Positions 283 through 48,006 of a stretch of DNA of 64,000 nt are shown in pieces. Source of the DNA: Minisyncoccota bacterium (GTDB lineage: Bacteria; Patescibacteriota; Minisyncoccia; Phycocordibacterales; JABAAK01); the NCBI GenBank assembly GCA_958295675.1, contig OY282360.1:594026-658025 (forward strand). Reading direction: 5' to 3'. The translations under genes and the position numbers were made by a program. The notes under the pieces are model-generated. The model was given only the letters and a program-made list of their open reading frames with translations, did no database searches and was not told the origin of the DNA. The number at the start of each line of letters is the position of its first letter. The first letter of the stretch is position 1.

Positions 283-2262
<1,980 letters not shown>

Positions 2263-15700: not shown

Positions 15701-15705
15701 GCGGG

Positions 15706-28479: not shown

Positions 28480-29658
28480 CTACCGGGAAACACACGCGAG
28501 CGGAAGATGTTTTCGTATACAACGCGCCAATGCGCGCGCATCACCAGCTGTCGCGGTCGGCAGCACACCGATGCGAAGTGCTTCATCTGTCTGTTCAGCA
28601 CAGGCAGTGGCGGTAGAAACTGCGAAACCGTCCGCATCAAGCAGTGCCGCCAGATACATATGATTGGTGTTCGCAAACGATATATACATCAGATGCGGCG
28701 CGAAAGAACTCAAGTCAGCATTGACAGCATCACGCGCGTTCATTGCAATACCATGTACATACGCATCAGGAGCAAACTCAATAATTGAGTGCAGTACCGA
28801 ATCACGCACATGCCTCGCCCGACAACACACCTCTTCCCGATTTCCGTACATCCTATGCAGAGCGGCTGTGAAACCGCATATAAGCGCAACAGAGGGCGTA
28901 CCGGGACGAATATCCCATATACTGTGTTCTCCCGAAAAACCGGCATATCTGCCAGATCCGGGCAGCAGCAGCGCACCGACACCTTGCGGACCGAACAGCT
29001 TCGCGCTGTCCACGGTCACCGCATCAGCGCGAAGCGACATCGGTGAACAGTCAAAATACACCGATGCCTGTGCCGCATCTGTATGCACAAAAAGCGATGG
29101 TTGACGAACTCTGCATGCGTCAGCAATCCGTCCGACTGGCTGCACAGATCCGTGCTGACTGTTCACATATTGCAGCGAAAGAAAAACTGTGTTTTTCCTT
29201 ATACACCGAACAACATCGTCAGGTGTGTATAACACACCCGATGCTGATGGTTTTGCAACCGTATATGAGACACCGAGCGCGCTGAAATACAACGCGCTTT
29301 TATGAACCGAACTGTGCTCCTCATGTCCGATGACAATATGTATATCAGAAAGCGCGATCCCCTTTCTCAGTGCACGCAGTACCGCGATACGCATCGCTGT
29401 TATATTCGCCTCTGTTGCGCCGGAAAGAAATATCACATCGCACGCTTTAACCTTGTACAATTCCGCTGCTATCTTTCTCGAACGATCAAGATAGCCCTGC
29501 GCTCGTCTGCCGAACGCATGCGCTGAAACAGGATTACCGGAACGGCAGACGGATTGTTCCCGCAAAACTTTTTCCATAGCAATGCGGGCATCTCTGCAGA
29601 CAGGCGTAAATGAACCGGAATCAAAGTAGCGCGCACTTTTGTCCCGAAAAAATGACAT
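28480..29658 (-). CDS. Class V aminotransferase / cysteine desulfurase family protein
   Basis: RYFDSGS near the N-terminus. SGATEANI. HTDAAQ. DSAKLFGPQGVGALL with the PLP-lysine region. Start trimmed so it does not overlap the divergent infB. Confidence 0.6.
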   Translation of the reverse strand: MSFFRDKSARYFDSGSFTPVCRDARIAMEKVLREQSVCRSGNPVSAHAFGRRAQGYLDRSRKIAAELYKVKACDVIFLSGATEANITAMRIAVLRALRKGIALSDIHIVIGHEEHSSVHKSALYFSALGVSYTVAKPSASGVLYTPDDVVRCIRKNTVFLSLQYVNSQHGSVQPVGRIADACRVRQPSLFVHTDAAQASVYFDCSPMSLRADAVTVDSAKLFGPQGVGALLLPGSGRYAGFSGEHSIWDIRPGTPSVALICGFTAALHRMYGNREEVCCRARHVRDSVLHSIIEFAPDAYVHGIAMNARDAVNADLSSFAPHLMYISFANTNHMYLAALLDADGFAVSTATACAEQTDEALRIGVLPTATAGDARALARCIRKHLPLACVSR

Positions 29659-29737
29659 GACATGCATCATGGTATCACAGAACGATACCATTTCTAATTT
29701 GTTAGATGAGATACTTTTGTATATACTACAAAACTAT

Positions 29738-31228
29738 ATGGCACATACACGACCGCCGATTATCACTGTCGTCGGACACATAGATCACGGCAAATCAAAA
29801 CTGCAACACGCTCTGAGAAATATGGACATTCAGGCAGCGGAAGCGGGCAACATCACCCAGCACATCGGCGCATACGAACTCAATGCGCAATACGAAGGCA
29901 TGCCACGCAGAGCAACCATAATTGACACCCCGGGACATGAAGCATTCTCACACATACGCAAACACGGTCTTGAAATCGCTGATATAGCTCTGTTGGTCAT
30001 TTCCTCCGAAGAAGGATGGAAAGAGCAAACCAAAGAAGCGCATCGGCTTATAGAAAAAGCAAACCTGCCGTATATTGTGGTATTCACAAAAATTGACACG
30101 GACCGCGCAAATATTGAACGCGCAAAACAAAGTGTGCTGCAGAACAACATTCTGCTTGAAGGACTCGGCGGTTCAGTGCCATGGACTGCTGTATCATCAG
30201 TTACCAATGAAGGTATAGCGGATCTTGTTGAACTCATATTCCTCACCACGGATGTCTATGAAATCATTGAAGACAGAAAGGACGGATCAGTCGGCATATT
30301 GATTGAAGCGGATATTGATCCAAAAATAGGAATAGCAGGAACAGTGATAGTACTGCAGGACACATTGGAAACAAACAAATATGTCCGTATCGGCGGCAGC
30401 ATCGCCCCGCTCAGAATTATGAAAGACGACTGGGGAAACACCAAAACATCGGTCACACCGTCAACACCGGTACGAATAATCGGTTTTGACAGCATACCGC
30501 CGATAGGAGAACCAGTATTCCTGTACGAAACAAAAAAAGAGGCATTGGAAGACGCAAAAAAAATCCAACCGGCGCAAAGCCATAACAATGAAACAGGACA
30601 CAAAGACAGAAACATACATCTCGTACTGCGGTCCGACACAGCATCGGGCCTCTCATCAATTGAACATGCCATTACCGGTGTTGCTGTTGAGGGTATATCG
30701 TTCATTATTGTGAAAAAAGAGGTCGGCAATATAACCGAAGAGGATATGCGACTCGCGCTGGCTCAGGACGGCGGACAGGTTGTCGGCTTTCACACCTCTG
30801 CTGATCAGCGCGCGAAACAATTCGCCGAAAGAAACGGCATGACTGTCAATATTTTTTCCACTATCTATGAATTAATTGATTGGGCGACCGCAACATCACA
30901 GGAAAAAAAGGAGGTGTATGAAGAAGCAAACCCGACCGGCAGCGCAACCGTTATCCGAATCTTTGAAGAACAACCGGCGCAAAGTATATACATAATCGGT
31001 GCGCAGATAATAAAAGGGAGATTTACTGTGAACCAAAATATCATCACACGGAGAAACGGTAATGCTGTCGGACGATTTACCATTGAATCTATAGAACAAC
31101 GAAATGCGGCACAGGAAGAAGTGTCCGGAGAAAAAACACAGTTCGCAATGCGTATCAAAGGAAACGGCTCAATAATAGCACAGGACACTATTTTCGCGCT
31201 GCCGAATATGATGAAAAACAGCGTATGA
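29738..31228 (+). CDS. infB: Translation initiation factor IF-2, short form lacking the N-terminal domains
   Basis: G-domain VVGHIDHGKSKL...DTPGHEAF...TKID. The beta-barrel domains follow. rbfA follows with an ATGA overlap, the classic infB-rbfA operon arrangement. Confidence 0.75.
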   Translation: MAHTRPPIITVVGHIDHGKSKLQHALRNMDIQAAEAGNITQHIGAYELNAQYEGMPRRATIIDTPGHEAFSHIRKHGLEIADIALLVISSEEGWKEQTKEAHRLIEKANLPYIVVFTKIDTDRANIERAKQSVLQNNILLEGLGGSVPWTAVSSVTNEGIADLVELIFLTTDVYEIIEDRKDGSVGILIEADIDPKIGIAGTVIVLQDTLETNKYVRIGGSIAPLRIMKDDWGNTKTSVTPSTPVRIIGFDSIPPIGEPVFLYETKKEALEDAKKIQPAQSHNNETGHKDRNIHLVLRSDTASGLSSIEHAITGVAVEGISFIIVKKEVGNITEEDMRLALAQDGGQVVGFHTSADQRAKQFAERNGMTVNIFSTIYELIDWATATSQEKKEVYEEANPTGSATVIRIFEEQPAQSIYIIGAQIIKGRFTVNQNIITRRNGNAVGRFTIESIEQRNAAQEEVSGEKTQFAMRIKGNGSIIAQDTIFALPNMMKNSV

Positions 31229-31554
31229 ACTTCACACATGAACAACAGAATACAATTCGCGAAGGACGACTTGCATCGCTCCTCAGAGAAACCGTATCAC
31301 ATTTTCTCCAGGGAACAGCAAACAAAAGTTCGTTTATCACAATCTCCTACATTCATATGAACAAATCAGGACATACAGCAGTCGTACATTGTTCTGTTTT
31401 CCCTGAAGAGCGACAAAATGAAGCGATGTCCTTTCTTAAAAGACAAGAAAATGCTTGTCGTGATTATATTCGAAAAAATACCTCGCTGCGCGTCATACCG
31501 ACAATCCGTTTTGAACTGGCAAAAGGAATGAATATAATGGCACACTATGAGTAG
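31225..31554 (+). CDS. rbfA: Ribosome-binding factor A
   Basis: 109 aa with an RbfA-like pattern (R..RLASLLRE...ITISYIHMNKSGHTAVVHCSV...RVIPTIRFE), located directly after infB. Confidence 0.6.
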   Translation: MNFTHEQQNTIREGRLASLLRETVSHFLQGTANKSSFITISYIHMNKSGHTAVVHCSVFPEERQNEAMSFLKRQENACRDYIRKNTSLRVIPTIRFELAKGMNIMAHYE

Positions 31555-31582
31555 CGACGGCACGACAATGAGTGCCGGACGC

Positions 31583-31654
<72 letters not shown>

Positions 31655-31695
31655 CAACATACTCCGCATAGACACTAATACCGTATACTTACAAT

Positions 31696-33006
31696 ATGAA
31701 AGAAAACACTCATGACCTACTCATTCACGGCGGCAAACCGCTTGCAGGAACAATAACAACAAACACATCAAAAAACGGATCAGTGGCATTGCTCTGTGCG
31801 GCACTCATCAATCAGAATAAAACACATGTACGAGGCATAGCGGACATTGAGGAGGTGAAACGCCTTATTGAAGTTATGGAAGATCTTGGTGTCTCGGTAA
31901 CCCGTGAGAACGATACTGTGACCATTGCACCACCAACCACATACAACTTAAACGGCTTGTTTAATAAATCATTTGAACGCATTCGCTCAGGACTAATGCT
32001 TATTCCTGCACTGGCACACAAACACACAACATTCAAACTGCCGGCAGCAGGCGGCTGCAGTATGGGAAAAAGAACAACTATTGCACACACACACGGACTG
32101 GAAAAATTAGGCATTAGCATACAGCGGGAAGAACTGTGTTCTGTTGTCAGTAAAACTGAACCAAAAACCGACACAATTGTGATGTATGAAATGAGTGATA
32201 CAGCAACCGTCAACATGCTCATAGCGGCATCACTGACACCACAGACGACGACAATATCATTCGCATCAGCAAACTATCAGGTGCAGGAGATCTGCTTTTT
32301 TCTGCAGACATTAGGTGTGGAGGTAGAAGGTATCGGCACAAGCACGCTGCATGTGCACGGTATCGGAACCATAGCGAAAGAGGTAACCTATACTAACAGC
32401 GAGGATCCGACCGAGAGCATGGCATTTATCGCCATAGCGGCGACAACAAACTCACCGCTCACTATAACACGCGCGCCGATTAGCTTTCTTGAATTGGAAC
32501 TACTTATTCTGGAGTCCATGGGATTCTCTTTCACACTCTCAAAAGCGTACACATCAGAAAACGGAAAGACAAAATTAGTTGATATAACCATGCGCGAATC
32601 AAACCTCACCGCGCCTGCGGAAAAGATTCACGCGCTTCCCTACCCGGGTATAAATACTGACAACTTACCCTTCTTTGTGCCGATAGCGACACAAGCGAAA
32701 GGAGTAACCCTGATACACGACTGGATGTGGGAAAACCGAGCGATTTATTATACTGAACTTAACCGTCTTGGCGCGAATATCACCCTACTGGACCCGCATC
32801 GCGTGACTATACACGGCAAAACACCCTTGCGTGGCGCGCAAGCCGTCTGCCCGCCGGCGCTCCGTCCGGCAATGATTATCCTCGTCGCAATGCTCGCATC
32901 AGAAGGAACATCAATCCTACGTGATACCTACATCATCCATCGCGGCTACGAGGATATAGTGCAACGCCTCAATACCCTCGGCGCGGATATGAGCGTACTG
33001 AAATAA
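31696..33006 (+). CDS. murA: UDP-N-acetylglucosamine 1-carboxyvinyltransferase (EPT family, MurA-like)
   Basis: 436 aa. N-terminus HGGKPLAGTITTNTSKNGSVAL. AAGGCSMGKRTTIAHTHGLEKLG with a catalytic-type Cys. EPT-fold repeats. Confidence 0.7.
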   Translation: MKENTHDLLIHGGKPLAGTITTNTSKNGSVALLCAALINQNKTHVRGIADIEEVKRLIEVMEDLGVSVTRENDTVTIAPPTTYNLNGLFNKSFERIRSGLMLIPALAHKHTTFKLPAAGGCSMGKRTTIAHTHGLEKLGISIQREELCSVVSKTEPKTDTIVMYEMSDTATVNMLIAASLTPQTTTISFASANYQVQEICFFLQTLGVEVEGIGTSTLHVHGIGTIAKEVTYTNSEDPTESMAFIAIAATTNSPLTITRAPISFLELELLILESMGFSFTLSKAYTSENGKTKLVDITMRESNLTAPAEKIHALPYPGINTDNLPFFVPIATQAKGVTLIHDWMWENRAIYYTELNRLGANITLLDPHRVTIHGKTPLRGAQAVCPPALRPAMIILVAMLASEGTSILRDTYIIHRGYEDIVQRLNTLGADMSVLK

Positions 33007-33169
33007 CCAGCAATATAAAAGAAATAATACTTGACAAGAAAAACTATATTATTTTATAAAAATAATATTGCCAGTACACATATATAATTGTATCGTATGT
33101 GGTATTATATAAATGGATGGTGTTACTGACACCTTGAACACTCAAACCAGACGGCAGGAGGAAAAAGCA

Positions 33170-33724
33170 ATGGCTTGCCGAATTACATGCATCCTTTTCC
33201 TTTCTTTCTTCTTCATCATCAGTTGCTCAACAACTGAAAACCGTGTCCGTGATGTGGAAAACCGTATCCGTGATGTGGAGAAGGAAGCAGAAAAGATAAT
33301 GGAGAACATAGCAATGGACATGGACTTCATAACAGAAACCTTTTGTAGGAACAAGGGGTTTCCGCAACACGACGCTTCAATAACGCTCGGTAGAAATGGC
33401 ATGATTATCAAAAACACTGATTTTCATGTCAATGGCAATATCTACCTTTGTGGGGATGATGCACTCGTCACGATAAAGGGGACACTGCAGGTACAACGCA
33501 TTTACCTGATTGGCAAACGCGTACGAGTGCAAGCAGAACAATTCATTCTGAGTGCACCGATTAGTCGATCGGTGTTTGTCGTTGAAGGCAGCGATGCCAT
33601 GATCATAACCGCTGATCAATTAACAGATCCGGCGGTATTACAAGCATGGCAAGAAAAATCTCCAAGACGTTATGGCGTCAACAACATCAAAATGAGACGA
33701 AAGTTCGTTCATTTCAACAGGTAG
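33170..33724 (+). CDS. Putative lipoprotein with short ENRVRDVE repeats
   Basis: Strong SD GGAGG. N-terminus MACRITCILFLSFFFIISCSTT, lipobox-like IISC. Bidirectional terminator downstream. Confidence 0.45.
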   Translation: MACRITCILFLSFFFIISCSTTENRVRDVENRIRDVEKEAEKIMENIAMDMDFITETFCRNKGFPQHDASITLGRNGMIIKNTDFHVNGNIYLCGDDALVTIKGTLQVQRIYLIGKRVRVQAEQFILSAPISRSVFVVEGSDAMIITADQLTDPAVLQAWQEKSPRRYGVNNIKMRRKFVHFNR

Positions 33725-33737
33725 AAGAATTCGCATA

Positions 33738-33780
33738 ACCCCCTTTTTTTACTTCAAGTGAGAAAAGGGGGGTTCTTTTG
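33738..33780. terminator. Bidirectional hairpin terminator (AACCCCCTTTTTTT...AAAAGGGGGGTT plus T-run)
   Basis: G/C-rich stem flanked by T/A runs on both sides. Sits between the lipoprotein gene (+) and the tRNA cluster (-). Confidence 0.5.
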
Positions 33781-33787
33781 TATCAAA

Positions 33788-33870
33788 GAAAACAGAGGAC
33801 TCGAACCTCCATGGGTTGCCCCACCGTCTCCTAAGACCGGCGCGTCTACCCGTGCCGTCAATCTTTGATT
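33788..33870 (-). pseudogene. tRNA-Leu-derived pseudo-tRNA fragment
   Basis: About 57 nt (part of the D-arm, anticodon arm, variable arm and T-arm) is near-identical to the adjacent tRNA-Leu(TAG). There is no complementary acceptor stem and the D-stem pairing is broken. Confidence 0.35.
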
Positions 33871-33910
33871 GATGCTGACAAGCAGTCGCCACAGGTGGCG
33901 GAAGTATCAG

Positions 33911-33992
33911 GTGCCGAGGAGAGGACTCGAACCTCCATGGGTTGCCCCACCGGTTCCTAAGACCGGCGCGTCTACCAATTCCGCCACCTCGG
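33911..33992 (-). tRNA. tRNA-Leu (anticodon TAG), long variable arm
   Basis: GCCGAGGTGGCGGAATTGGTAGACGC...CCGGTCTTAGGAACCGG...GGAGGTTCGAGTCCTC...CCTCGGCA. Anticodon loop CTTAGGA. Confidence 0.85.
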
Positions 33993-33997
33993 CATAG

Positions 33998-34070
33998 TCC
34001 GCCCACTAGGATTCGAACCTAGGACCCACCGGTTAAGAGCCGGTTGCTCTACCAACTGAGCTATGGGCGG
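33998..34070 (-). tRNA. tRNA-Lys (anticodon CTT)
   Basis: CCGCCCATAGCTCAGTTGGTAGAGC...ACCGGCTCTTAACCGGT...CTAGGTTCGAATCCTAG...TGGGCGGA. Anticodon loop CTCTTAA. Confidence 0.8.
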
Positions 34071-34244
34071 TAAGCACAGTAATACTATACAATAGAGCAC
34101 ATAAAAAATAAAAAAGATTTAAAAACTGAGTGTATTACAAAATCTAACCTATACACAAACTATACAATCACTCAATATTAAATCGTATGCATCCATCCAT
34201 TTAGCACTGAAAAACAGTTACCACGAAACGACAGGATCGCCGAG

Positions 34245-34327
34245 TGCCGGAGGCGGGAATCGAACCCGCACACCCCGAGGGTACACGATTTTAAGTCGTG
34301 AGCGTCTACCAATTCCGCCACTCCGGC
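34245..34327 (-). tRNA. tRNA-Leu (anticodon TAA), long variable arm
   Basis: GCCGGAGTGGCGGAATTGGTAGACGC...CACGACTTAAAATCGTG...GCGGGTTCGATTCCCGC...CTCCGGCA. Confidence 0.85.
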
Positions 34328-34397
34328 TTTATAAAATACTATAACACTTTGTACGAATCATATAGAATATATAAACTTACTTTCGGTTCTTTTAGAT

Positions 34398-34441
34398 TCT
34401 AAAAAAACAAACCCCACAGGAGCGAACTCCTGTGGGGGTTT
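34398..34441 (-). terminator. Rho-independent terminator downstream of secreted paralog A1
   Basis: AAACCCCACAGG..CCTGTGGGGGTTT hairpin with T-run on the minus strand. Confidence 0.55.
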
Positions 34442-34462
34442 GGGTTTGGTGAAGGCGACGAC

Positions 34463-35194
34463 CTACTCCGACGTGTTGAAGAACACATAGCCGGGGTTGG
34501 GTACACCATCAAGTGCCGCGGCTGCCCTGTTGGCAAGATCTCGCTCTGCAAGAGTCGCATCAACCTGAGCGGCAAGCATGGCGAGTCGCTCTTGATCAAG
34601 CCGCGCCATCTCAAGATTGGCGCCGTTGTCAAAGTCAGCCGAAACAGGGTCCTCCTGCTTGTGCGGGAAAGATTGCCCTTGGTCGGCACCGGTCGTCACA
34701 TCACCTACAGACCTGGCAACATGAGCTGCGAGAGCCCGCTCACCGGTGTTCTCAAGCAGCGCACTAGCGTTGATCTTGTCTCCGCCAACAATGTGCACTC
34801 CCGGAGGAGTGTCGAAGAGATCTTCTTCGGCAACAGACCGACGACCGTCAATCCACTCGATGGTCGCTACCCGAAGGGCATGGTTCCAACCGCGCGTTCC
34901 AGGGCGAACCCGGTACTTGGAGTCACTCAGATACGTACTCCAAGTCGCGGTGACATCACGAGCACTCACCCGATCCTGCGGACCAAGTTGCCGATTGCTG
35001 CCGGTCAGCGCGTAGATCGCGTTGGCGGTTTCCCGCGTGATCTTCGAAGAGCCGGACGGCACCTTGGAATCGAAAGAGACCGCGAGCTCGGTGTTGAGGG
35101 CAGAGATCGTTTGTGCCTTTCCGTAGTCCCCTTGCCCCGCAAAAGCGGTAGCACCGAAGAGAACGGCGATGAAAAGGAAAAGTAGTTTGCGCAT
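34463..35194 (-). CDS. Secreted protein, island family A (paralog A1)
   Basis: SD AAGGAG. Signal peptide MRKLLFLFIAVLFGATAFAGQ. Shares the IxGGDxIN...LENTGERALAAH...TTGADQ module with the other three paralogs. High GC. Confidence 0.6.
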   Translation of the reverse strand: MRKLLFLFIAVLFGATAFAGQGDYGKAQTISALNTELAVSFDSKVPSGSSKITRETANAIYALTGSNRQLGPQDRVSARDVTATWSTYLSDSKYRVRPGTRGWNHALRVATIEWIDGRRSVAEEDLFDTPPGVHIVGGDKINASALLENTGERALAAHVARSVGDVTTGADQGQSFPHKQEDPVSADFDNGANLEMARLDQERLAMLAAQVDATLAERDLANRAAAALDGVPNPGYVFFNTSE

Positions 35195-35559
35195 TTCAGC
35201 ACTCCTTTTGTTTACGGGGTAGGTTAAGTAAAACGGCTGAGTGAATCACTCTTCCGCTCTGTTTGGTAGATTAGAGAGATGTTACACACACGGTGTTGAA
35301 CTCCCAACCCTGCCCAAATCTACTGTGTAGTATAGAGAAAAAAATACTCTTGTCAAGACCACCCAAAGAATAGACAATAATAGATTATTATTTTATAATA
35401 AAACACACCTATACACACGATAAAATATGTGGTGTAGTGTATGGAATAGCATATACATAAAAAATCAATCCTCTATGAAAGTAAACTTCCATAGAGGATT
35501 GTGAGATCTCCTACTCCGCCGGTGCATCACCAGCAGGCATAGAACCACCGACTGCACGA
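35171..35559. repeat. 389-bp junction cassette, copy 1: 3' tail of gene B, terminator, AT-rich promoter region, SD, and first ~8 codons of gene A1
   Basis: Essentially identical to 36070-36456. Confidence 0.8.
35456..35501 (-). terminator. Rho-independent terminator inside junction cassette copy 1
   Basis: CAATCCTCTATG..CATAGAGGATTG 12-bp stem plus T-run on the minus strand, just after the gene B stop. Confidence 0.6.
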
Positions 35560-36092
35560 GCAACCGGATTGGTGCCGCCCAGTTCCCGCATCATGTCCCC
35601 GGCGGGGAAACATTGAGGCGTGCGCACGCTGCGATTGACGAGGAATTCAAAGTACCGCCGAGCCGTATCAAGTCTGGCCAAATCGGCACCACCCTCTATC
35701 AACTGCACAAACTCCTCAGCGCGCTTCTGCAGCACAAGCGGAGGAATCTCCGTGCCGCTGAGACAGGCCTTCACATCCTCGGTACTGGCATTTGCCATCC
35801 ACCGGGCATAGGCATCAAGCCCATCGTCAACGCGCTTGTAGATCGTGATCGCCCCACCGGAGTTCACGACGGCACCGAAGACGGCGTCATCTCCCACATT
35901 GCGAGCGGTGCCGTCGATTTCGGACCCTTGAACGATTTCCGCGCTGCCGCCGCGTTTTGCAACGGATTCGACCATCTTCGCCGCATCTGCGCTTTCCAGA
36001 ACGAACTGGAAACTGACAGTCGGTTCAGCAACCGCAGCAGTGCCAATGCCGAGAGAGAGAACGGCGGTGAAAAGGAAAAGTAGTTTGCGCAT
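35511..36092 (-). CDS. Secreted protein, island gene B. Shares its signal-peptide start and its GGSMPAGDAPAE C-terminal tail with paralog A2 via the cassette
   Basis: Signal peptide MRKLLFLFTAVLSLGIGTAAVA. Unique ~160-aa body. The 5' and 3' ends lie inside the repeated cassettes. Confidence 0.55.
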   Translation of the reverse strand: MRKLLFLFTAVLSLGIGTAAVAEPTVSFQFVLESADAAKMVESVAKRGGSAEIVQGSEIDGTARNVGDDAVFGAVVNSGGAITIYKRVDDGLDAYARWMANASTEDVKACLSGTEIPPLVLQKRAEEFVQLIEGGADLARLDTARRYFEFLVNRSVRTPQCFPAGDMMRELGGTNPVARAVGGSMPAGDAPAE

Positions 36093-36456
36093 TTCAGCAC
36101 TCCTTTTGTTTACGGGGTAGGTTAAGTAAAACGGCTGAGTGAATCACTCTTCCGCTCTGTTTGGTAGATTAGAGAGATGTTACACACACGGTGTTGAACT
36201 CCCAACCCTGCCCAAATCTACTGTGTAGTATAGAGAAAAAAATACTCTTGTCAAGACCACCCAAAGAATAGACAATAATAGATTATTATTTTATAATAAA
36301 ACACACCTATACACACGATAAAATATGTGGTGTAGTGTATGGAATAGCATATACATAAAAAATCAATCCTCTATGAAAGTAAACTTCCATAGAGGATTGT
36401 GAGATCTCCTACTCCGCCGGTGCATCACCAGCAGGCATAGAACCACCGGTCGTCAT
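36070..36456. repeat. 389-bp junction cassette, copy 2
   Basis: Near-identical to 35171-35559. Contains the 3' tail of A2, a terminator, a promoter region and the 5' start of gene B. Confidence 0.8.
36354..36399 (-). terminator. Rho-independent terminator inside junction cassette copy 2
   Basis: Same 12-bp hairpin and T-run as copy 1. Confidence 0.6.
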
Positions 36457-36948
36457 GTCATCTGCAGACCTGAGAACATGAGCTGCGAGAGCCCGCTCAC
36501 CGGTGTTCTCAACCCGCGCAGTAGGGTTGATCTTGTCTCCGCCAACAATGTGCAATCCCGGAGGAGTGTCGAAGAGATCTTCTTCGGCAACAGACCGACG
36601 ACCGTCAATCCACTCGATGGTCGCTACCCGAAGGGCATGGTTCCAACCGCGCGTTCCAGGGCGAACCCGGTACTTGGAGTCACTCAGATACGTACTCCAA
36701 GTCGCGGTGACATCACGAGCACTCACCCGATCCTGCGGACCAAGTTGCCGATTGCTGCCGGTCAGCGCGTAGATCGCGTTGGCGGTTTCCCGCGTGATCT
36801 TCGAAGAGCCGGACGGCACCTTGGAATCGAAAGAGACCGCGAGCTCGGTGTTGAGGGCAGAGATCGTTTGTGCCTTTCCGTAGTCCCCTTGCCCCGCAAA
36901 AGCGGTAGCACCGAAGAGAACGGCGATGAAAAGAATTACATTACGCAT
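36409..36948 (-). CDS. Secreted protein, island family A (paralog A2); chimera of the A1 body with the gene B C-terminal tail
   Basis: Residues ~8-150 identical to A1; DNA 36470-36925 near-identical to 34715-35170. The C-terminus switches to ...TTGGSMPAGDAPAE, the same tail as gene B. Own SD AAGGAG. Confidence 0.55.
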   Translation of the reverse strand: MRNVILFIAVLFGATAFAGQGDYGKAQTISALNTELAVSFDSKVPSGSSKITRETANAIYALTGSNRQLGPQDRVSARDVTATWSTYLSDSKYRVRPGTRGWNHALRVATIEWIDGRRSVAEEDLFDTPPGLHIVGGDKINPTARVENTGERALAAHVLRSADDMTTGGSMPAGDAPAE

Positions 36949-37085
36949 GTATGTCTCCTTGTAAGTTAGTTAATAAGGATGGAAGGGTCTCAAAGTATGG
37001 ATGAGTACTACCCTTCAACATCCAACCCTAAAAAGATTTTAGCAAATAAAATATGAATTGTCAACTACAGTAGTATATAAATTTC

Positions 37086-37131
37086 AAAAAGACAAAAATA
37101 AACCCTGTGGGATGTGTATCCCACAGGGTTT
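37086..37131 (-). terminator. Rho-independent terminator downstream of paralog A3
   Basis: AAACCCTGTGGGAT..ATCCCACAGGGTTT hairpin plus T-run on the minus strand. Confidence 0.55.
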
Positions 37132-37143
37132 AACAACCAACCA

Positions 37144-38376
37144 CTAGCGATCGCTCTCGCCGCAGTAAACGACTGAATCTACCCGTTCACCATCAGAGTT
37201 AGTATACGATCTTGTACACAAACGCTGTGTGTAAACAGATTCCCTCCTCATCGTCATAGGGTTAAAATCGCTTGCTACACTGATGTCAACCTTACACGCC
37301 TTCGGATTACTTTCAACAACGAGTCCCACAACTGTGGAGTCGTCGTTTATGTTAAGTGCCTGCATCTGATCTACTGAAACGGAGTAAGCGCTCCCACAGA
37401 CACGAATCGGATTTTTCCGAAGATCACCGATAAAGCGACTCAAGGACATCTGATCAGTCCAACGTATATACAGTCGACATTGTTTTTCTTCTGTATTGAC
37501 AAGCGCACCGATGACCTTACCGTTGTTGCCTCTATTAGCGATAACGCTATCGTTCATGACAACATTGTAAGAGTCCCGACAAAATTCAATCAATGGATTG
37601 TTGACGGAGGGTTTGCGACTGATTTCCGCTACAGCTGCAACAACAGCACTCTCACCATCATTTGCAACAATGGTGTTTGCTATACTGTGCCCGCCAACAA
37701 TGATCAAATGAGATCCACTCTCTGAATCAGTAAGTGAACTTTTAGCAGACAAGATGTGTTCTAGCACAGCATCAATCCCAACATCACCACCAAGTCCATC
37801 AAAAACTGAAGTTCTCTTAGGCAGATATGTAGGTTGAGCATCAGAACCTGATCGCGGCTGATCAGCACCAGTCGTCACATCTCCAGCCCTGAAAATATGA
37901 GCTGCGAGAGCCCGCTCACCGGTGTTCTCAAGCTGCGCAGTAGAGTTGATCCGATCTCCGCCAATAATGGTCAGTTTTGGAGGGGGTTTGAGGAGATCTG
38001 CTTCAGCAGTAGCGTGAAAACTCATCGCCCATTGCACGATGGCCCTACGGGCGTCGGAGTCCAGTCGCCTGGATCCAGGATTCACATCCGTGAACCCCTG
38101 ATTGCGAAGGAAGGAAGTCAAAAGAGAAAATGTGTCCTCTTTTCGGAACCGCTGATCACTAGTCAACGGTTCCATACCCGCAAGGGTACGGACAGCATTC
38201 GCTGTTTCACGGCTGACAACGGGAGACCCTGCCTGAACAGACGGATCCACGAACTCAGACAGTGCTGTGTTGAGGACGCTTATCGCTCCTCGATTGCCAA
38301 CATCGTTAGCAACTGCGGCAGGACCGCTGAGAGCCATAGCGAATGCTACGGCGAAAGAGAGAATTGCTTTACGCAT
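37144..38376 (-). CDS. Secreted protein, island family A (paralog A3), with an internally duplicated GG-x-I-x-T...G-E-x-A module and a Cys-containing C-terminal domain
   Basis: SD GGAGG, 9 nt before the ATG at 38376. Signal peptide MRKAILSFAVAFAMALSGPAAVA. Motifs LTIIGGDRINSTAQLENTGERALAAHIF and LIIVGGHSIANTIVANDGESAVVAAV. Confidence 0.55.
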   Translation of the reverse strand: MRKAILSFAVAFAMALSGPAAVANDVGNRGAISVLNTALSEFVDPSVQAGSPVVSRETANAVRTLAGMEPLTSDQRFRKEDTFSLLTSFLRNQGFTDVNPGSRRLDSDARRAIVQWAMSFHATAEADLLKPPPKLTIIGGDRINSTAQLENTGERALAAHIFRAGDVTTGADQPRSGSDAQPTYLPKRTSVFDGLGGDVGIDAVLEHILSAKSSLTDSESGSHLIIVGGHSIANTIVANDGESAVVAAVAEISRKPSVNNPLIEFCRDSYNVVMNDSVIANRGNNGKVIGALVNTEEKQCRLYIRWTDQMSLSRFIGDLRKNPIRVCGSAYSVSVDQMQALNINDDSTVVGLVVESNPKACKVDISVASDFNPMTMRRESVYTQRLCTRSYTNSDGERVDSVVYCGESDR

Positions 38377-38535
38377 TTGTTGCTCCTCCAATAAAAACCA
38401 AATTTCCACATGTAAGATGGAAATCCCTATTTATATAATAACACTTTATTTGTAAAAGTCAAATAATAAAAAAGAGAGCGCTGCTTGCATATTTCAGCAA
38501 ACAACGCTCTTGAGAAGTCCGGCTAGACAGGTTGT

Positions 38536-39522
38536 CTAAATCGAAGCTTGCCGAAGCAGAGGCGCAGACGGCACACCTCTCAGTCCAAGTGTCTTCAAAA
38601 AGTCAAGAGGAATACCGGCGAACAAAAAACTTCCCGGATTCAGGTAGTTATCTTCCAAGCGTCCGCCGCCTGATCTCTCAGCTCTGTGTTCCCATCCCTC
38701 TATGACATACGGAATGGTGAGACAGTAGTCAAACGCTATGTCCCACTCCACATTCTGCAGATTTGTCACGCAAGTCCCGGAATCTACCCGCTCGTACCCG
38801 TCAACAGGACCGGAGATCGCTCGACGAATGACAGGGTTATCTCCACCGCTAAATGCAGCAAGGTACTTCTGCGCAAGACGATCCCTCTCTTCCATACCTG
38901 GTTTGGCAAAGAACATTTCGTAGTTCCGTCCTGCTCTTACCACCTTCTGATGCCACTTCAAGACGACGCATCTATAGGCATGCCTATAGTCATCCGTCAG
39001 CGGATTACTCACAATTGGCCTCCGAAAACCAGAAGATGTTGAGTACCATCCTTGAGAAGATGTATCAAGGGAAAGGTCAACACGAACAATCTCCGGACAA
39101 GCCGGTGGCATACCAATCGGTTGCAACCCTACATCCTCTAAAACAGCTGCTGCTGGTACAACTTCTGCCAAAGGAATGTCTTTCGGAAGAGGTGGGAGTT
39201 GGAGTGAAGGTGGAGTAACGGCAACGGTGTGATGCTCACGCACCACATCAAACTGATTGGCGAACAGCATGATCACCAACAGAACCAGACCAGTGATCAC
39301 CGCAATGACCACTGACTTCCGATTGCGTTCCCACCAAGTCAGATGACGGGGCCGATACGGTTGCCGTCGTCGGTTTTGGTGTTGGTTTCTACGACCACCA
39401 CCAGGTCTGACGACAATTTGGGGGGGTCTGGTATATGCCTTGTACACCACACACCCCAAGCCCACTACTGCAAGTGTCACCAATAGAAGCACTACGATGA
39501 CGACAATTTGAAAAAAATCCAT
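38536..39522 (-). CDS. Two-TM membrane protein with an Arg-rich cytoplasmic loop and a ~250-aa extracytoplasmic domain
   Basis: Strong SD AAGGAGG. TM1 IVVIVVLLLVTLAVVGLGCVV. Loop RPGGGRRNQHQNRRRQPYRPR. TM2 VVIAVITGLVLLVIMLF. Confidence 0.5.
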   Translation of the reverse strand: MDFFQIVVIVVLLLVTLAVVGLGCVVYKAYTRPPQIVVRPGGGRRNQHQNRRRQPYRPRHLTWWERNRKSVVIAVITGLVLLVIMLFANQFDVVREHHTVAVTPPSLQLPPLPKDIPLAEVVPAAAVLEDVGLQPIGMPPACPEIVRVDLSLDTSSQGWYSTSSGFRRPIVSNPLTDDYRHAYRCVVLKWHQKVVRAGRNYEMFFAKPGMEERDRLAQKYLAAFSGGDNPVIRRAISGPVDGYERVDSGTCVTNLQNVEWDIAFDYCLTIPYVIEGWEHRAERSGGGRLEDNYLNPGSFLFAGIPLDFLKTLGLRGVPSAPLLRQASI

Positions 39523-39651
39523 GTGCTTTCCTCCTTATGAAACAAAACAGATTTCCAAATATAGTATACAATAAAATAAAAAATAATGCAAGTATTGCCC
39601 TTCTCCGACCTCATTTTAACATTGATTTCCGCTTAAAGCTAATTCTGTACT

Positions 39652-40290
39652 CTATTCATCCGTCCTTTTTATCCATTCATCAATTAGGCTATTCTTTGTT
39701 GAAGGATCAGAGTCTTTATACTGTTCAGATATCTGACTCAATTGCGCAATTGCAGTACTTTGCTGTGCAGGTGATAAACTACGCAAATGAGTAATTGCAG
39801 CACTTTGGTGTGCTGAAGATAGACTATTCCAATGTGTAACGGAACTTCCAAGATGAGCAAGTGAACCTGGTACTTGGTGGACAACCGAACCAGCAGCAGG
39901 AGATCCACGAGGCAGGCGTAAAGATTCAATATTGGTATTTCCTGCGTTTCCGGGACCACCACTACCTGAACCGAGTAAAATAAGTCCTAAAAAGTATACA
40001 AGACCCCAAATGCTGGTCAGGACAAAAATGGCAAGCAGTCCCCAAAATATCTTCTTTTTTGCTTCATCTAAACCCTCTTTACCTCCTCCGGTATTCAAAA
40101 TAAAGGTCGCAAGATTCCAAAAGAAAAAAAGAAAGGCACAACCAACCGCAATTATAACCAGCAAATTTACAATGTTTATAAAACTAGAAAGAATATTAAT
40201 AATCCTGCCCACTTCCGCAGCGGCGGTCTGCGCAGATGCAATAGGTGCTGCTAGTATGCCGATACAAGAGAGTACAATATACGATGCCAT
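39652..40290 (-). CDS. Pilin-like small membrane protein P1 (VirB2/TrbC-like layout) with a Ser/His/Leu-rich repetitive C-terminal extension
   Basis: Signal peptide MASYIVLSCIGILAAPIASAQT. TM FLFFFWNLATFIL. Loop NTGGGKEGLDEAKKK. TM IFWGLLAIFVLTSIWGLVYF. Paralogous to P3. Confidence 0.5.
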   Translation of the reverse strand: MASYIVLSCIGILAAPIASAQTAAAEVGRIINILSSFINIVNLLVIIAVGCAFLFFFWNLATFILNTGGGKEGLDEAKKKIFWGLLAIFVLTSIWGLVYFLGLILLGSGSGGPGNAGNTNIESLRLPRGSPAAGSVVHQVPGSLAHLGSSVTHWNSLSSAHQSAAITHLRSLSPAQQSTAIAQLSQISEQYKDSDPSTKNSLIDEWIKRTDE

Positions 40291-40394
40291 ATACGAGAAG
40301 TATACTATATAGACATAACAAGAATGTTGGTTATAAACAAAAAATTATGACCGTAACAGTGGGATAAACCACTGCTACGGTCATGGAATGTGCG

Positions 40395-41261
40395 CTAAAG
40401 CGCAACAAGCTGATACAGGTCAGATGTCATCACGATGGGTTGTCCGCCGCGCAGCAATGCAGTGCACGCGCGAGAGTAGACATTCCCTCCGTCCGTCTGT
40501 GCCGGCAGGTGAGAAATACAATCACGAACCGTGATCTCCTCATCACCCATCACAATGCTGCCAGCAACAGAAGGCATCTCGGCAAGGTTGTATGCGAGTG
40601 ATGCGTTGTATGCGCACCACGTTGCTGCAGGATACACACGAACACCGCCGCGCCTGAGATCAACAACATGCTGAGCACTTGGCGGTTGGCTTGCATACCG
40701 ATCGCAAGCGTTTTCCGACGCGCCAAACATCGTCGCAACCGGAGCTCCGACGAAATCAGCCACATCGTCCCGCTGCTGGTAGGTGAAAGCACCAACCAAC
40801 ACAAGAACGGCACCGGTGGTGGCCCAGCTAACGCGTGGCCACTGACCGAAAACACGGCGAACTACGCCGGTTACGCCGGAAACAGCACCTCGCACAGCAC
40901 GGCGAACTACGCCGGCTACGCGGGAAACAGTACCTCGCACAGCACTCCACACCTTCCCGGAAGCAGTGGCGACACCGCTGCCGAAACGGGAAAACAGACC
41001 GGGCTGCTGCTCTTGAGCGGCGGCGTCTACTGCGGCCGTTGCCGTTGCGGTCTGCGGCTGCGGATCTTGAGCACCCGCTGCTGCGGGCTGCTGCTCTTGA
41101 GCGTCTACTGCGGCCGTTGCGGTCTGCTCGGGCTGCTGCTCTTGAGCGTCTACTGCAGCCGTTGCGGTCTGCTCGGGCTGCTGCTCTTGATCGGTGTCGG
41201 CATCTGCTGGCAAAAACTTCCCTTGCGCATCGCGTCGCTGACCGTTACCATTTTCACTCAT
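40395..41261 (-). CDS. Repeat-containing membrane protein: acidic QQPEQTATAAVDA repeats, a basic VRGxVS repeat region, one TM helix, and a Cys-containing extracytoplasmic domain
   Basis: Very GC-rich ORF. 45-bp tandem DNA repeats encode the EQQPEQTATAAVDAQ units. Confidence 0.5.
   Translation of the reverse strand: MSENGNGQRRDAQGKFLPADADTDQEQQPEQTATAAVDAQEQQPEQTATAAVDAQEQQPAAAGAQDPQPQTATATAAVDAAAQEQQPGLFSRFGSGVATASGKVWSAVRGTVSRVAGVVRRAVRGAVSGVTGVVRRVFGQWPRVSWATTGAVLVLVGAFTYQQRDDVADFVGAPVATMFGASENACDRYASQPPSAQHVVDLRRGGVRVYPAATWCAYNASLAYNLAEMPSVAGSIVMGDEEITVRDCISHLPAQTDGGNVYSRACTALLRGGQPIVMTSDLYQLVAL
41010..41215. repeat. 45-bp coding tandem repeat, about 3.5-4.5 copies (VNTR-like)
   Basis: GGGCTGCTGCTCTTGAGCGTCTACTGC[G/A]GCCGTTGCGGTCTGCTC recurs head-to-tail with minor variants. 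Confidence 0.7.
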
Positions 41262-41464
41262 CGCTTTCTCCTTCGGTTAAATGGAAATGAACCTGACTCT
41301 ACAAATAAAGCCAGAACCAGTACACAAGATACCATAAACAATCAAAACACGCAACTATACAAGAAATATTGTTTAATATACTGTATATTAAACAATATTA
41401 TAACGAAAATATGCAGTATTTATAGGATAATTTTACTATTTTCCTGATTGACTACCTCAATGTG

Positions 41465-41779
41465 CTACCTCAAAAATTGATACTCAGCAAACTGTATGTG
41501 CTCCTTTTTATTCAACTGCTGATCCGACTGAGATAAGCGGGCAACAAAGGAAAAAAGGGTATAAATTGAGAATATAATAAAAATACCAAGAATAATGATG
41601 CTCAAATTCTTGAACATACCGCCCCGTTTTTCCGCGGCATCAGCATTGGCGACAAATCGAACTGCAGTCACAATCAGCAGCAACAAGGCAATGAATGCCA
41701 TAGCGGCAATGAGCGGATCTACGATATTGTTAAACAAACTGTTTGCAACACCGCTTGCTGTTACTGCATAGACAATCAT
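41465..41779 (-). CDS. Pilin-like small membrane protein P2
   Basis: 104 aa. Leader, TM IAAMAFIALLLLIVTAV, loop RFVANADAAEKRGGMFKN, TM LSIIILGIFIIFSIYTLF. Confidence 0.45.
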   Translation of the reverse strand: MIVYAVTASGVANSLFNNIVDPLIAAMAFIALLLLIVTAVRFVANADAAEKRGGMFKNLSIIILGIFIIFSIYTLFSFVARLSQSDQQLNKKEHIQFAEYQFLR

Positions 41780-41835
41780 ACAGTAGTATAGTATACAAGA
41801 TTACAAAAAATAGAAAACAATTATGGTGTTTATGT

Positions 41836-42273
41836 CTACTTAGTAGTGTTTCCTTTTTGATTAAATGTTACACCAGGCACTTTAATCTCATTTATATTTG
41901 CATCAGTACCTGCACCAACACCAAAGATAGAACGCACAAATGTAATAAGACCCCATAGCGAAGTTATCACGACCATAGCAAGAACCCCCCACAACATATT
42001 TGCTTTTGCTTTTGCTTTTGCATCTTCATCACTCTTCAAAACAAACATTGCAAGATTAAAAAAGAAAAACAAAAAGGCAAGTGACACAACAACAATGGTT
42101 GATGTGCCGACAAGACCGCCGACAGCACCGACACTATCGGTAAGCTGATCCAAAGGATTCTCAGTATCAACCTTCGGCGTTTGAGCAAGAACACTTGTCA
42201 TGCCAAGAACCGCAGTAAGCCCAACGGCAAATAATAAAGTACTAACTGACTGAATAGATTGTGATAGTTTCAT
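41836..42273 (-). CDS. Pilin-like small membrane protein P3
   Basis: Signal peptide MKLSQSIQSVSTLLFAVGLTAVLGMTSVLAQT. TM FLFFFFNLAMFVL. Loop KSDEDAKAKAKAN. TM MLWGVLAMVVITSLWGLITF. Confidence 0.5.
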   Translation of the reverse strand: MKLSQSIQSVSTLLFAVGLTAVLGMTSVLAQTPKVDTENPLDQLTDSVGAVGGLVGTSTIVVVSLAFLFFFFNLAMFVLKSDEDAKAKAKANMLWGVLAMVVITSLWGLITFVRSIFGVGAGTDANINEIKVPGVTFNQKGNTTK

Positions 42274-42398
42274 ATACTATGGTAATAAAGTAAGTAATTA
42301 TTTTCTTTTCTCAGGTAATCGGATACTGTAAGAACACTGTTAGTATACTATTTCGCCATACACACAAAAAAATACTGTGGATAACTTCTGATTGTACT

Positions 42399-42779
42399 TT
42401 ATGCGGAAAAGAGGATGCGCAATACCGCTATAATTCCCCACAGCGTGAAAACCAGTAACAAAATAATGACCGGATACCACAACCGCTTCACTGCCAACTC
42501 AGCCATATTTTTACTGCCGCCATGCGTCTCTTTGATGTAGACAACGATACCATACACAAAAACCAAAAATAACACCGTTATCGCCAGTGGAATCAGCGTG
42601 CCGCCAACAACTTTGATAATCGTATCAACAAGTTCTCTCAACGATAGTTTTTTAAAAGGGAAAAAAGAGGAGTCAGCAGCATACGATACCAACGGCACAA
42701 CAAGCAGAACCGCAGAGGACACAACACCGACTAGCGGTGCCCATCTCCATGTCCATTGATTGCTTCCCATGCACTTCAT
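42399..42779 (-). CDS. Pilin-like small membrane protein P4
   Basis: Signal peptide. TM LIPLAITVLFLVFVYGIVVYI. Loop KETHGGSKNMAELAVKRL. TM WYPVIILLLVFTLWGIIAVL. 4-nt overlap with P5. Confidence 0.45.
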   Translation of the reverse strand: MKCMGSNQWTWRWAPLVGVVSSAVLLVVPLVSYAADSSFFPFKKLSLRELVDTIIKVVGGTLIPLAITVLFLVFVYGIVVYIKETHGGSKNMAELAVKRLWYPVIILLLVFTLWGIIAVLRILFSA

Positions 42780-43261
42780 ATAATGTTATGAGTACCGGAA
42801 GATACGCTGATGAGTGGATTATCGGGACCATTGTCATTATATAACGATGTCGCTTCGGGTTCGCTGTCCTTCAGCACCTGATTAACCGTGTTTTGTATTA
42901 CACTCAGAATGCCTTTTATGCCTAATACAATAAACAGACCGATAAAAGCAATGACAAGGGACCTTTTTAATTCAGCAAATTTTTCCGGCTTGGACGCACC
43001 TGCCAAGACCATCTGAAAACCAATATACACAATTGCAACCGTCATAATCGGTATAAGGATGAGTGTAACAGCATCTAATATGCGCAAGAGAAGTTCTGTC
43101 AAACTGTTAGATGTGATAGGGTTACATAAAATTTTTCCTGTTTCACATCCGGTTTCCGCAACAGCAGGTGTTTCCGCAACAGCAGGTATAGCGTAAAGCA
43201 TAAAAACAACCGAGGTTATACAAAGAACACAGTACGCGGTTAGCGATGATATGCGTTTCAT
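42776..43261 (-). CDS. Pilin-like small membrane protein P5
   Basis: Signal peptide MKRISSLTAYCVLCITSVVFMLYAIPAVAE. Cys pair. TM LILIPIMTVAIVYIGFQMVL. Loop AGASKPEKFAELKRS. TM LVIAFIGLFIVLGIKGIL. Confidence 0.45.
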   Translation of the reverse strand: MKRISSLTAYCVLCITSVVFMLYAIPAVAETPAVAETGCETGKILCNPITSNSLTELLLRILDAVTLILIPIMTVAIVYIGFQMVLAGASKPEKFAELKRSLVIAFIGLFIVLGIKGILSVIQNTVNQVLKDSEPEATSLYNDNGPDNPLISVSSGTHNII

Positions 43262-43278
43262 ACATCATGCAGTATACA

Positions 43279-44541: not shown

Positions 44542-44554
44542 AGAACTTGCGCCC

Positions 44555-46993: not shown

Positions 46994-47085
46994 ATAATCC
47001 GCAGTATAACATACAACAAAGACACAAAAAGATATGGTGATAAAAAAACGCATCCGCTGTTCGCGAATGCGTAAGTGCTGACACA

Positions 47086-47739: not shown

Positions 47740-47835
47740 GGTTCGTTTCCTCCGCTAAAAGCGTCAAACCTAATACACTATAGCAAAAAATATTGAAAAC
47801 AAAAAATGCTTTAAAATAAAGGTAAAATTAGCTTT

Positions 47836-47961: not shown

Positions 47962-48006
47962 CAGAATCCATATATCAGATAGTATAAAATATAGAAAAGA
48001 GCGCAT

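Follow-up and report, generated by a model that had tools for sequence, protein, structure and literature searches.

In the Vlp, Vsp and Vsa arrays of Mycoplasma, a near-identical cassette of promoter, 5′ untranslated region and signal-sequence start precedes divergent mature regions. In Helicobacter pylori, the gene pairs babA/babB and homA/homB are alike in a 3′ segment within a strain and different in it between strains, and the rest of each gene follows orthology (PMC3960876). The maf islands of Neisseria encode MafB proteins that combine a signal peptide, a lineage-restricted N-domain, a junction motif and variable C-termini, and that occur in tandem copies (PMC4287609). Cell-envelope islands of other microbes are strain-differing blocks of envelope genes that are diversified by homologous recombination and have been read as a response to viruses (PMC4535781). 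Here we describe a locus that recalls each of these systems: a cluster of four minus-strand open reading frames (ORFs), called A1, B, A2 and A3, at positions 34463-38376 of a window of 64,000 nucleotides (nt), the whole stretch of DNA that was analysed, from a 724,510-bp contig (OY282360.1) of a Minisyncoccota bacterium.

Our preferred reading, which we hold to be moderately likely, is that the cluster encodes an exported orphan family, lies in a recombining envelope island and serves an extracellular interaction that differs between strains. The comparison that informs this reading is with a second genome, in which a 21.3-kb locus (L001) around P0002, a protein of 441 residues that is 44% identical to A3, lies on a 90.9-kb ENA contig and is syntenic with the matching region of the window; ~19 kb can be compared between the two strains. 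The gene order in L001 is A3′ - Atr (181 residues) - A′ (245 residues) - B′ (183 residues) - A′ - B′ - tRNAs, as against A3-A2-B-A1 in the window, and the A′-B′ pair in L001 is duplicated as a 1772-nt unit with 99.9% identity.

Architecture of the cluster

The ORF listing gives the four genes as follows.

34463..35194, minus strand: A1, 243 residues, with signal peptide, N-domain, module and a coiled-coil-like tail ending GYVFFNTSE (from ORF and signal-peptide features)
35511..36092, minus strand: B, a predicted exported protein of 193 residues with 2 cysteines and a conserved QCFPAGDMM motif
36409..36948, minus strand: A2, a 179-residue chimera of an A1-like body (codons 6-169) and then the 13-codon tail of B, with its own promoter
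37144..38376, minus strand: A3, 410 residues, with N-domain, module, a linker holding a second module-like copy, and a 6-cysteine C-terminal domain

Common to A1, A2 and A3 are a ~110-residue, mostly helical N-domain, which includes a RETANA segment, and then a ~40-residue module. A first-pass annotation, made by a model from the letters of this DNA, had picked out both the module and the upstream RETANA segment as shared by the three proteins; both are present, and the consensus that it gave is slightly idealised. A1 departs from it by S for T and by one extra residue before D, and A2 by V for L and by the loss of the final A-D-Q, which is missing because the tail of A2 is replaced. The segments and repeats on which the argument turns are these.

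34679..34810, minus strand: module of A1 (TPPGVHIVGGDKINASALLENTGERALAAHVARSVGDVTTGADQ)
36442..36567, minus strand: module of A2, ending at the junction with the B tail, with CGGTG microhomology around 36444-36448
37861..37989, minus strand: module of A3, inside a ~150-nt tract (37859-38008) with 80% DNA identity to A1 and A2
34721..34755 (A1), 36478-36512 (A2) and 37897-37931 (A3), minus strand: a 35-nt block, identical in the three genes, that encodes LENTGERALAAH
37630..37707, minus strand: second, diverged module-like copy in A3 (LIIVGGHSIANTIVANDGESAVVAAV), assessed by a shuffle test
37147..37593, minus strand: beta-rich C-terminal domain of A3 with 6 cysteines, the last 110 residues 64.5% identical to L001 A3′
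34687..35176 and 36444-36933, direct orientation: repeat R1, 97.8% identical, covering codons ~7-169 of A1 and A2
35158..35550 and 36056-36448, direct orientation: repeat R2, 393 nt, 99.7% identical

Outside the ~150-nt tract, A3 has no similarity to A1 and A2 at the level of DNA, and within it the modules are 72-76% identical pairwise among the three proteins. The 35-nt block has 3 exact copies in the window, and 0/100 shuffles gave any match. As for the internal duplication of the module that the annotation had also proposed in A3, the second copy reaches a local score of 41 against 24 +/- 4 in shuffles, with 5/2000 shuffles attaining that score (p about 0.0025), so that shuffling lends it modest support; the module hidden Markov model (HMM) by itself misses it (E 7.1). 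The cysteine-containing C-terminal domain of A3 stands as described, with six cysteines counted. In an AF2 model of A3 from a 4-sequence alignment (mean predicted local distance difference test, pLDDT, of 40), residues ~28-120 alone are confident, forming four helices at pLDDT 73-88, and the module lies at pLDDT ~23 and the module and C-terminal domain together at about 23-40. A single-sequence model of B was unusable (mean pLDDT 41). The tail of A1, ~70 residues long, is low-complexity and coiled-coil-like. A C-terminal GYVFF[ND]T was considered as a common sorting signal and rejected, the motif being confined to A1 and its orthologues.

The repeats reveal how mosaic these genes are. R2 holds a 13-codon tail (GGSMPAGDAPAE), the stop codon, a terminator hairpin, a promoter, a ~125-nt leader and the first 12 codons (MRKLLFLF...) of the next gene, and because its two copies are near-identical, B and A1 are driven by identical expression and export cassettes. 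A2 consists of an A1-type body fused to the B tail at the CGGTG microhomology. Between A1 and A2, codons 7-132 are identical and codons 133-166 carry 9 nonsynonymous and 1 synonymous changes; there are thus 11 differences in 111 nt after none in 378 nt (Fisher p = 5.5e-8), and A1 and A2 accordingly contain two or more conversion tracts that differ in age. The short gene recurs in L001, where Atr is the positional orthologue of A2: the DNA upstream of the two genes, with a private promoter in it, is 82% identical, the truncated copies end just past the module (codon 169 in A2, codon 167 in Atr), and in each genome the body of the short gene matches the local full-length A gene. Given the orthology, the preserved promoter and the same endpoint, the short form seems to have been kept and not to be an accident, and a boundary appears to recur at the 3′ edge of the module. 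Tandem amplification and recombination, both of which the annotation had described, are borne out by R1, R2 and the L001 comparison.

Concerted evolution of the module

What does it mean that the module is shared by three paralogs? The proportion of synonymous differences (pS) within and between the two genomes is informative.

A1 vs A3, in the window: N-domain pS 0.76 (saturated), module pS 0.20
A3 vs A3′, between strains: N-domain pS 0.39, module pS 0.73
A′ vs A3′, in L001: N-domain pS 0.53, module pS 0.42

The drop in pS from 0.76 to 0.20 between A1 and A3 points to gene conversion in the module. At the protein level, the module is 71% identical among the three L001 paralogs and 20-31% identical between genomes, and the N-domain is 63% identical between A3 and L001 A3′ and 33% between A3 and A1. 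Module DNA is ~90% identical among the L001 paralogs, but its sequence differs from that in the window. In other words, the module looks conserved in the window because the paralogs of one genome have been homogenised; taken as a conserved hallmark of the family, it turns out to be the least conserved part between strains. This clustering of modules by genome is the mark of concerted evolution through gene conversion. The contrast is weak in L001 (0.42 vs 0.53), and protein-level constraint may therefore contribute there. The 35-nt core, which differs in L001, does not appear to be a dedicated recombination site.

A strain-hypervariable island

The cluster belongs to a larger variable region that is recognisable from DNA and protein identities together with transmembrane and lipobox features.

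33189..41209, no strand assigned: strain-hypervariable envelope-gene island of ~8 kb

This island contains the A/B cluster, the lipoprotein-like gene orf203, three tRNAs, orf328, a gene resembling T4SS_pilin (T4SS, type IV secretion system) and orf288, and all of its protein genes are predicted to encode proteins that reside in a membrane, resemble lipoproteins or are exported. The flanks (29000-33188 and 41000-48000) match L001 with 94-95% DNA identity, whereas within 33.2-41.2 kb the identity is 81-84% or undetectable. The protein identities between strains, listed below, are from BLASTP, and the second figure, where given, is from a codon alignment.

GyrA: 99.8%
MurA: 97%
SBP: 96%
IF2: 94%
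Tmk: 91%
orf328: 75-78%
pilin212: 67-71%
orf203: 50-54%
A3: 44-47%
B: 35-36% (vs B′)
A1: 34-35% (vs A′ of 245 residues)

Across the neighbouring envelope genes, identity declines gradually toward the A/B cluster, which lies in the most divergent stretch of the comparable ~19 kb, the other genes there being 91-99.8% identical. Within A1 the C-terminal tail, at 46% identity between strains, is the best-conserved part. By the Nei-Gojobori method, the background rate of synonymous substitution (dS) is 0.09-0.13, and in the island dS is about 0.3-1.6, the nonsynonymous rate (dN) 0.15-0.76 and dN/dS 0.33-0.65. Judged by these identities and dS values, the locus has evolved very fast relative to the genome background. 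Since dS is raised as much as dN, the alleles of the island seem to be much older than the flanking chromosome, and allele replacement by recombination together with long-term maintenance fits such old alleles better than a recent burst of point mutations.

The other island genes deserve brief description. The product of orf203 (33113-33724, plus strand) has a probable internal start (MACRIT...), a lipobox-like IISC and no Pfam match; its C-terminal half is repetitive, G-rich and beta-strand-like, and any resemblance to a bactofilin or beta-helix is an impression only. The product of orf328 has 2 transmembrane segments. That of orf288 (40395-41261, minus strand) consists of low-complexity repeats of QEQQPEQTATAAVDA, can be aligned over ~30 residues with its 341-residue positional counterpart in L001, and gives weak matches to tape-measure and capsid profiles, which its composition probably explains. 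PF18895/TrbC-like T4SS pilin paralogs lie at 23853-24332, 39652-40290, 41836-42273 and 42776-43261 (all minus strand) among housekeeping genes, and beside these four PF18895 paralogs the window gave no further recognisable type IV secretion genes. Directly downstream of A1 are genes for tRNA-Leu, tRNA-Lys and tRNA-Leu. The tRNA-Leu(tag) gene has an adjoining 67-nt partial duplicate that is 91% identical (33794-33860 vs 33920-33986), and in L001 the gene is repeated in tandem, four copies at a period of 126 nt (L001 16048-16507); a spurious ORF runs through these copies, with 85 residues in the window and 211 in L001.

Export and expression signals

Signal peptides were judged by a rule-based check on the 4 window proteins and 4 L001 counterparts. 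All eight have an n-region with 1-2 positive charges (MRK), a hydrophobic uncharged run of 18-21 residues and an A-x-A type cleavage site at residues 19-23 (AFA/G, AVA/E or AVA/N, with the slash marking the cut); by the same rules, none of the 8 has a lipobox cysteine or a later transmembrane segment, and the mature parts have an even number of cysteines in every case (6 in A3, 2 in B). These features fit A1, A2, A3 and B being Sec-exported proteins that are cleaved by signal peptidase I, in line with the cleavable signal peptides that the annotation had assigned to all four.

The promoter-like and terminator-like elements of the four genes are as follows.

35329..35356, minus strand: promoter-like site of A1 (TTGACA-16-TATACT), with an identical copy for B at 36227-36254
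37036-37064, minus strand: promoter-like site of A2
38435-38462, minus strand: promoter-like site of A3
34412..34437, minus strand: terminator-like hairpin after A1
35466-35501, minus strand: terminator-like hairpin after B
36364-36399, minus strand: terminator-like hairpin after A2
37099-37132, minus strand: terminator-like hairpin after A3

The promoter-like sites match 10-11 of 12 consensus positions and are kept in L001 even where the coding DNA is unalignable. A Shine-Dalgarno sequence (AAGGAG or GGAGGAG) stands 6-9 nt before the ATG in each of the four genes; for A3, the ATG at 38376 is preceded by GGAGGAG, and public gene calls give the same 410-residue product. With a Shine-Dalgarno sequence, promoter-like site and terminator-like hairpin of its own, each of A1, B, A2 and A3 looks like a separate, monocistronic transcription unit. 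The ORFs are intact in both strains, with the proportion of nonsynonymous differences (pN) below pS. An Rfam scan matched tRNAs and 23S rRNA only, with no match in the leaders of the genes. Antisense ORFs of 163-197 residues run over A1, A2 and A3 (34592-35185, 36478-36969 and 37897-38394, plus strand) with no sign of being genes; they recur because the underlying DNA repeats.

The relation of B to the A genes

B had been counted, at greater distance, as a member of the same four-member family. It does share the 393-nt 5′ cassette and a module-like segment with the A genes, but it has no full-length homology to A. Outside the signal peptide, the only alignment is one 34-column stretch, in which B residues 50-84 pair with A residues 134-169 (hhalign probability 68.6%, E 4.6e-5).

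35841..35945, minus strand: module-like segment of B (SAEIVQGSEIDGTARNVGDDAVFGAVVNSGGAITI), from hhalign and shuffle tests (z 3-4)

An HMM built from the A modules alone finds L001 B′ at E 6e-7 and the window B at just E 2.1. On these comparisons, B is a different protein, predicted to be exported, whose gene is interleaved with the A genes, and it is no true fourth member of the family. There is also a curious reciprocity of motifs: an IVGG...TGERA form is found in the window A proteins and in L001 B′ (L001 13284-13835), and a ...GDD[AS]V.G form in window B and the L001 A proteins. A reciprocal swap of module types between A and B across strains was considered on this basis and set aside as a weak lead only, the alignment scores being non-discriminating; window B scores z 3-4 against the window A modules and z 1.7-2 against those of L001.

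An orphan family in a poorly sampled lineage

The annotation had recognised no named family in the module, and neither the module nor the whole proteins matched a named family, or any sequence in very large databases beyond those of the two genomes. Searches of Pfam, NCBIfam, PHROGs and PADLOC gave best matches of E >= 0.03, far under curated cut-offs; PDB profile searches were empty or reached a best E of 0.91; and Foldseek against the PDB and BFVD returned no match with E <= 0.001. Structure prediction, which the annotation had put forward as a check, thus yielded a generic four-helix N-domain and no significant fold match. Three word-seeded searches of 5.8 billion clusters returned the window's own proteins and P0002 only, and HMMER, run exhaustively with a profile over 1.84 billion representative proteins, gave 4 matches, all from the two known contigs. 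The HMM search likewise proposed by the annotation therefore found the window genes and their L001 counterparts and no housekeeping homologue. The A alignment had no match in GTDB genomes, JGI metagenomes or viral contigs, the B alignment none in JGI metagenomes, and tblastn against phages and plasmids detected no homologue. The A and B profiles found nothing at E <= 1 in six-frame ORFs of 80 Patescibacteria murA loci, and exact look-ups of A3, RbfA and GyrA for further strains gave no record. Taken together, these searches mark the family as an orphan, confined to a single narrow lineage of the Patescibacteria (Candidate Phyla Radiation, CPR).

The window is otherwise ordinary chromosome, with murA, infB, rbfA, gyrA, tmk, clpB, groEL, ftsZ, ftsA and a 23S rRNA gene. 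Its G+C content is slightly higher at the cluster (0.515 vs about 0.45-0.47). Among GTDB species representatives, the best relatives of the window's MurA are only 55-62% identical to it, all of them from Paceibacterota/Parcubacteria metagenome-assembled genomes, which suggests that the host belongs to a poorly sampled lineage of Patescibacteria (CPR).

Weighing the explanations

Could the A proteins instead be polymorphic toxins of the MafB type, in which the N-domain is a carrier, the module is a junction for swapping warheads and B is a partner or immunity protein? The MafB-like layout (signal peptide, lineage-restricted N-domain, junction motif, alternative C-termini), the breakpoints of truncated copies directly past the module in both strains and the duplication of the A-B pair as a 1772-nt unit in L001 would all suit such a system. 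However, no toxin or immunity domain was matched in the family libraries or the PDB, the N-domains have diverged among paralogs (33% for A1 vs A3), and the ~70-residue, low-complexity and coiled-coil-like tail of A1 is the part best conserved between strains (46%), the opposite of a swapped warhead. Moreover, there are no orphan C-terminal cassettes, the short copies are without a C-terminus, and B has a signal peptide of its own, does not adjoin A3 and follows neither A3 nor A1. We regard toxins of this type as unlikely, and for a role as adhesin or toxin, two of the kinds of protein that the annotation had named for comparison, we find no positive evidence. Diversity-generating retroelements (DGRs) are common in CPR genomes, and programmed hypervariation, whether by a DGR, by cassette shuffling or by phase variation, with the 35-nt core as the recombination or homing site, would account for an exact core flanked by codons that differ in all three paralogs (4 triallelic nonsynonymous sites) and for identical 5′ cassettes. 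Yet a Pfam scan of the window ORFs >= 120 residues found no reverse transcriptase, integrase or invertase, the window has no fourth copy of the module to act as template, the substitutions are mixed rather than adenine-specific and the core adenines invariant, and all repeats are in direct orientation. The core is not kept in L001, so there is no fixed recognition site, and by our estimate a 35-base run of identity is only mildly unexpected for a tract with pS of about 0.2. The promoter T-tract and spacer length are constant in all copies in both strains, and phase variation by way of the T-tract was rejected on this invariance. Within the window, programmed hypervariation is largely refuted, and we hold it to be extremely improbable.

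The remaining two alternatives concern the integrity and the origin of the locus. That the duplicates are artefactual or decaying, either assembly errors or, in the case of A2 and B, pseudogene debris, is suggested by the truncated and chimeric nature of A2 and by near-identical repeats of 393-490 nt, a type that short-read assemblers mishandle; against this, an independent assembly shows a comparable arrangement, with a copy truncated at the same point behind its private promoter (82% DNA identity upstream), and the ORFs are intact, with Shine-Dalgarno sequences, promoter-like sites, terminators and pN < pS. Because of this comparable assembly and these intact ORFs, we judge artefact or debris very improbable. 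A mobile genomic island, acquired horizontally in recent times at the tRNA cluster, seems to us quite improbable as well. It would explain why the genes adjoin tRNA-Leu/Lys/Leu, the partial duplicate of tRNA-Leu(tag) in the window and its four tandem copies in L001, and the slightly raised G+C (0.515 vs about 0.45-0.47), but neither an integrase nor any other mobility gene turned up among the Pfam-scanned window ORFs, the two strains agree in gene order and orthology, divergence declines gradually with no sharp att-like borders, and the phage, plasmid and viral collections hold no homologue.

Selection enters the picture in a limited way. Across 38 ungapped module codons, 23/114 sites vary among A1, A2 and A3, and the triallelic sites are all nonsynonymous (4/4: V/L/L, A/P/S, L/R/Q and A/L/F). 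Only in the module flanks does pN/pS reach about 1-1.6 (about 1.1-1.6 for A1 or A2 vs A3), with very few changes, and A1 and A2 differ there by 7 nonsynonymous and 0 synonymous changes. Small as the counts are, the pattern at flanks and triallelic sites would agree with positive selection at a handful of exposed residues.

Our preferred reading, an exported orphan family in a recombining envelope island, has its own difficulties. Just two genomes carry the family, and the repeat structure is known from assemblies. The pS of the L001 module (0.42) is just under that of the N-domain (0.53), and constraint may explain part of the pattern. The signal-peptide calls come from rules rather than a trained predictor, and function is wholly inferred, with no homology and no confident fold beyond a generic four-helix N-domain. 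Between strains, whole-gene dN/dS is 0.47-0.60 with dS saturated, and the local nonsynonymous excess stems from about 10 substitutions. With dN/dS below 1 and dS saturated, positive selection is not demonstrated; the annotation's proposal of diversifying selection, for which it had called for a dN/dS analysis, is plausible but unproven, the divergence and the flank pN/pS being compatible with it.

A model for the locus and its significance

The cluster has been remodelled by tandem duplication, by microhomology-mediated fusion (A2 from A1 body and B tail) and by gene conversion among paralogs. The A and B proteins would act outside the cytoplasm, either at the cell surface or released into the medium, and take part in a strain-dependent interaction, most likely contact between this reduced-genome bacterium and a host or partner cell, or exposure to phage. 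Divergent alleles would be maintained under diversifying or frequency-dependent selection and exchanged by recombination. The module may link the N-domain to the variable C-terminus as a flexible and exposed stretch, in which conversion and breakpoints preferentially fall.

A more adventurous idea, which we think decidedly unlikely, is that the module is a strain-specific recognition or pairing element that A and B have in common and that conversion keeps in step within each genome. A and B might then assemble through their modules into an extracellular complex with a strain-specific ‘barcode’; a weak hint comes from the GERA form in window A and L001 B′ and the G-D-D form in window B and L001 A. 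If true, an episymbiotic CPR bacterium would be using an orphan fold in a new kind of system for the discrimination of kin or host.

Why should a small cluster of orphan genes matter? Patescibacteria (CPR) rely on other cells, hardly any of the molecules at their interface with those cells are known, and orphans predominate among the proteins that they secrete. Under our preferred reading, the locus is a small and well-delimited candidate for such cell-interface molecules, being predicted to be exported, lineage-specific and equipped with strong, kept promoter-like sites. Additionally, it offers an example, in a reduced genome, of how concerted evolution can make a motif look conserved, which calls for caution with motif families that are defined on one genome alone. 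With two genomes and no functional handle, the locus has limited practical value.

Other features of the window

Two tandem ORFs at 2665-3324 and 3383-4123 (both plus strand) have Pfam matches to OMP_b-brl, at E 6.8e-5 for the first and at E 1.3e-11, which passes the gathering score, for the second. Read from internal starts, they have signal peptides (MKKNAIVLV... and MKALALITT...), an alternating beta-strand pattern and a C-terminal Phe, classic features of outer-membrane beta-barrels that are odd for Patescibacteria, which are generally thought to be without an outer membrane; a PDB sequence search with the second ORF was empty. At 1-2269 (minus strand) lies a partial 23S rRNA gene in which Rfam positions 1-1948 extend over 2269 nt, and the extra, about 300 nt, may be an insertion or intron. 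Finally, adjacent RNase J paralogs occupy 15652-17544 and 17549-19435 (plus strand), the first without significant metallo-beta-lactamase domain matches.

Comparison with known systems

The type of phenomenon seen here is already known; the protein family and its occurrence in CPR are new. With the cell-envelope islands of other microbes the locus shares an island, here of 8 kb, that differs strongly between near-identical genomes, although this one is much smaller, encodes orphan secreted proteins rather than glycoproteins or glycosyltransferases, and is known in two versions. With MafB it has in common a signal peptidase I signal peptide, an N-domain, a short junction motif, variable C-termini and tandem copies within an island; it differs in that no toxin or immunity domains were detected, the N-domains have diverged, the A1 tail is conserved, orphan cassettes are absent and B is predicted to be exported. 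The Mycoplasma arrays lend themselves to comparison through the R2 cassette, which likewise stands in front of divergent mature regions, whereas a lipobox, tandem-repeat C-termini, a variable promoter homopolymer and invertible elements are all absent here. The bab and hom genes of H. pylori encode beta-barrel outer-membrane proteins, whereas these are, by prediction, small soluble exported proteins with no relationship to them in sequence or fold; the homogenised part is the 3′ end there and a ~150-nt internal tract here; and the organism in our case, a CPR bacterium, is uncultured and is not known to have an animal host. What bab and hom do share with this locus is the contrast between module and N-domain, along with chimeric genes that arise in both from recombination between paralogs.

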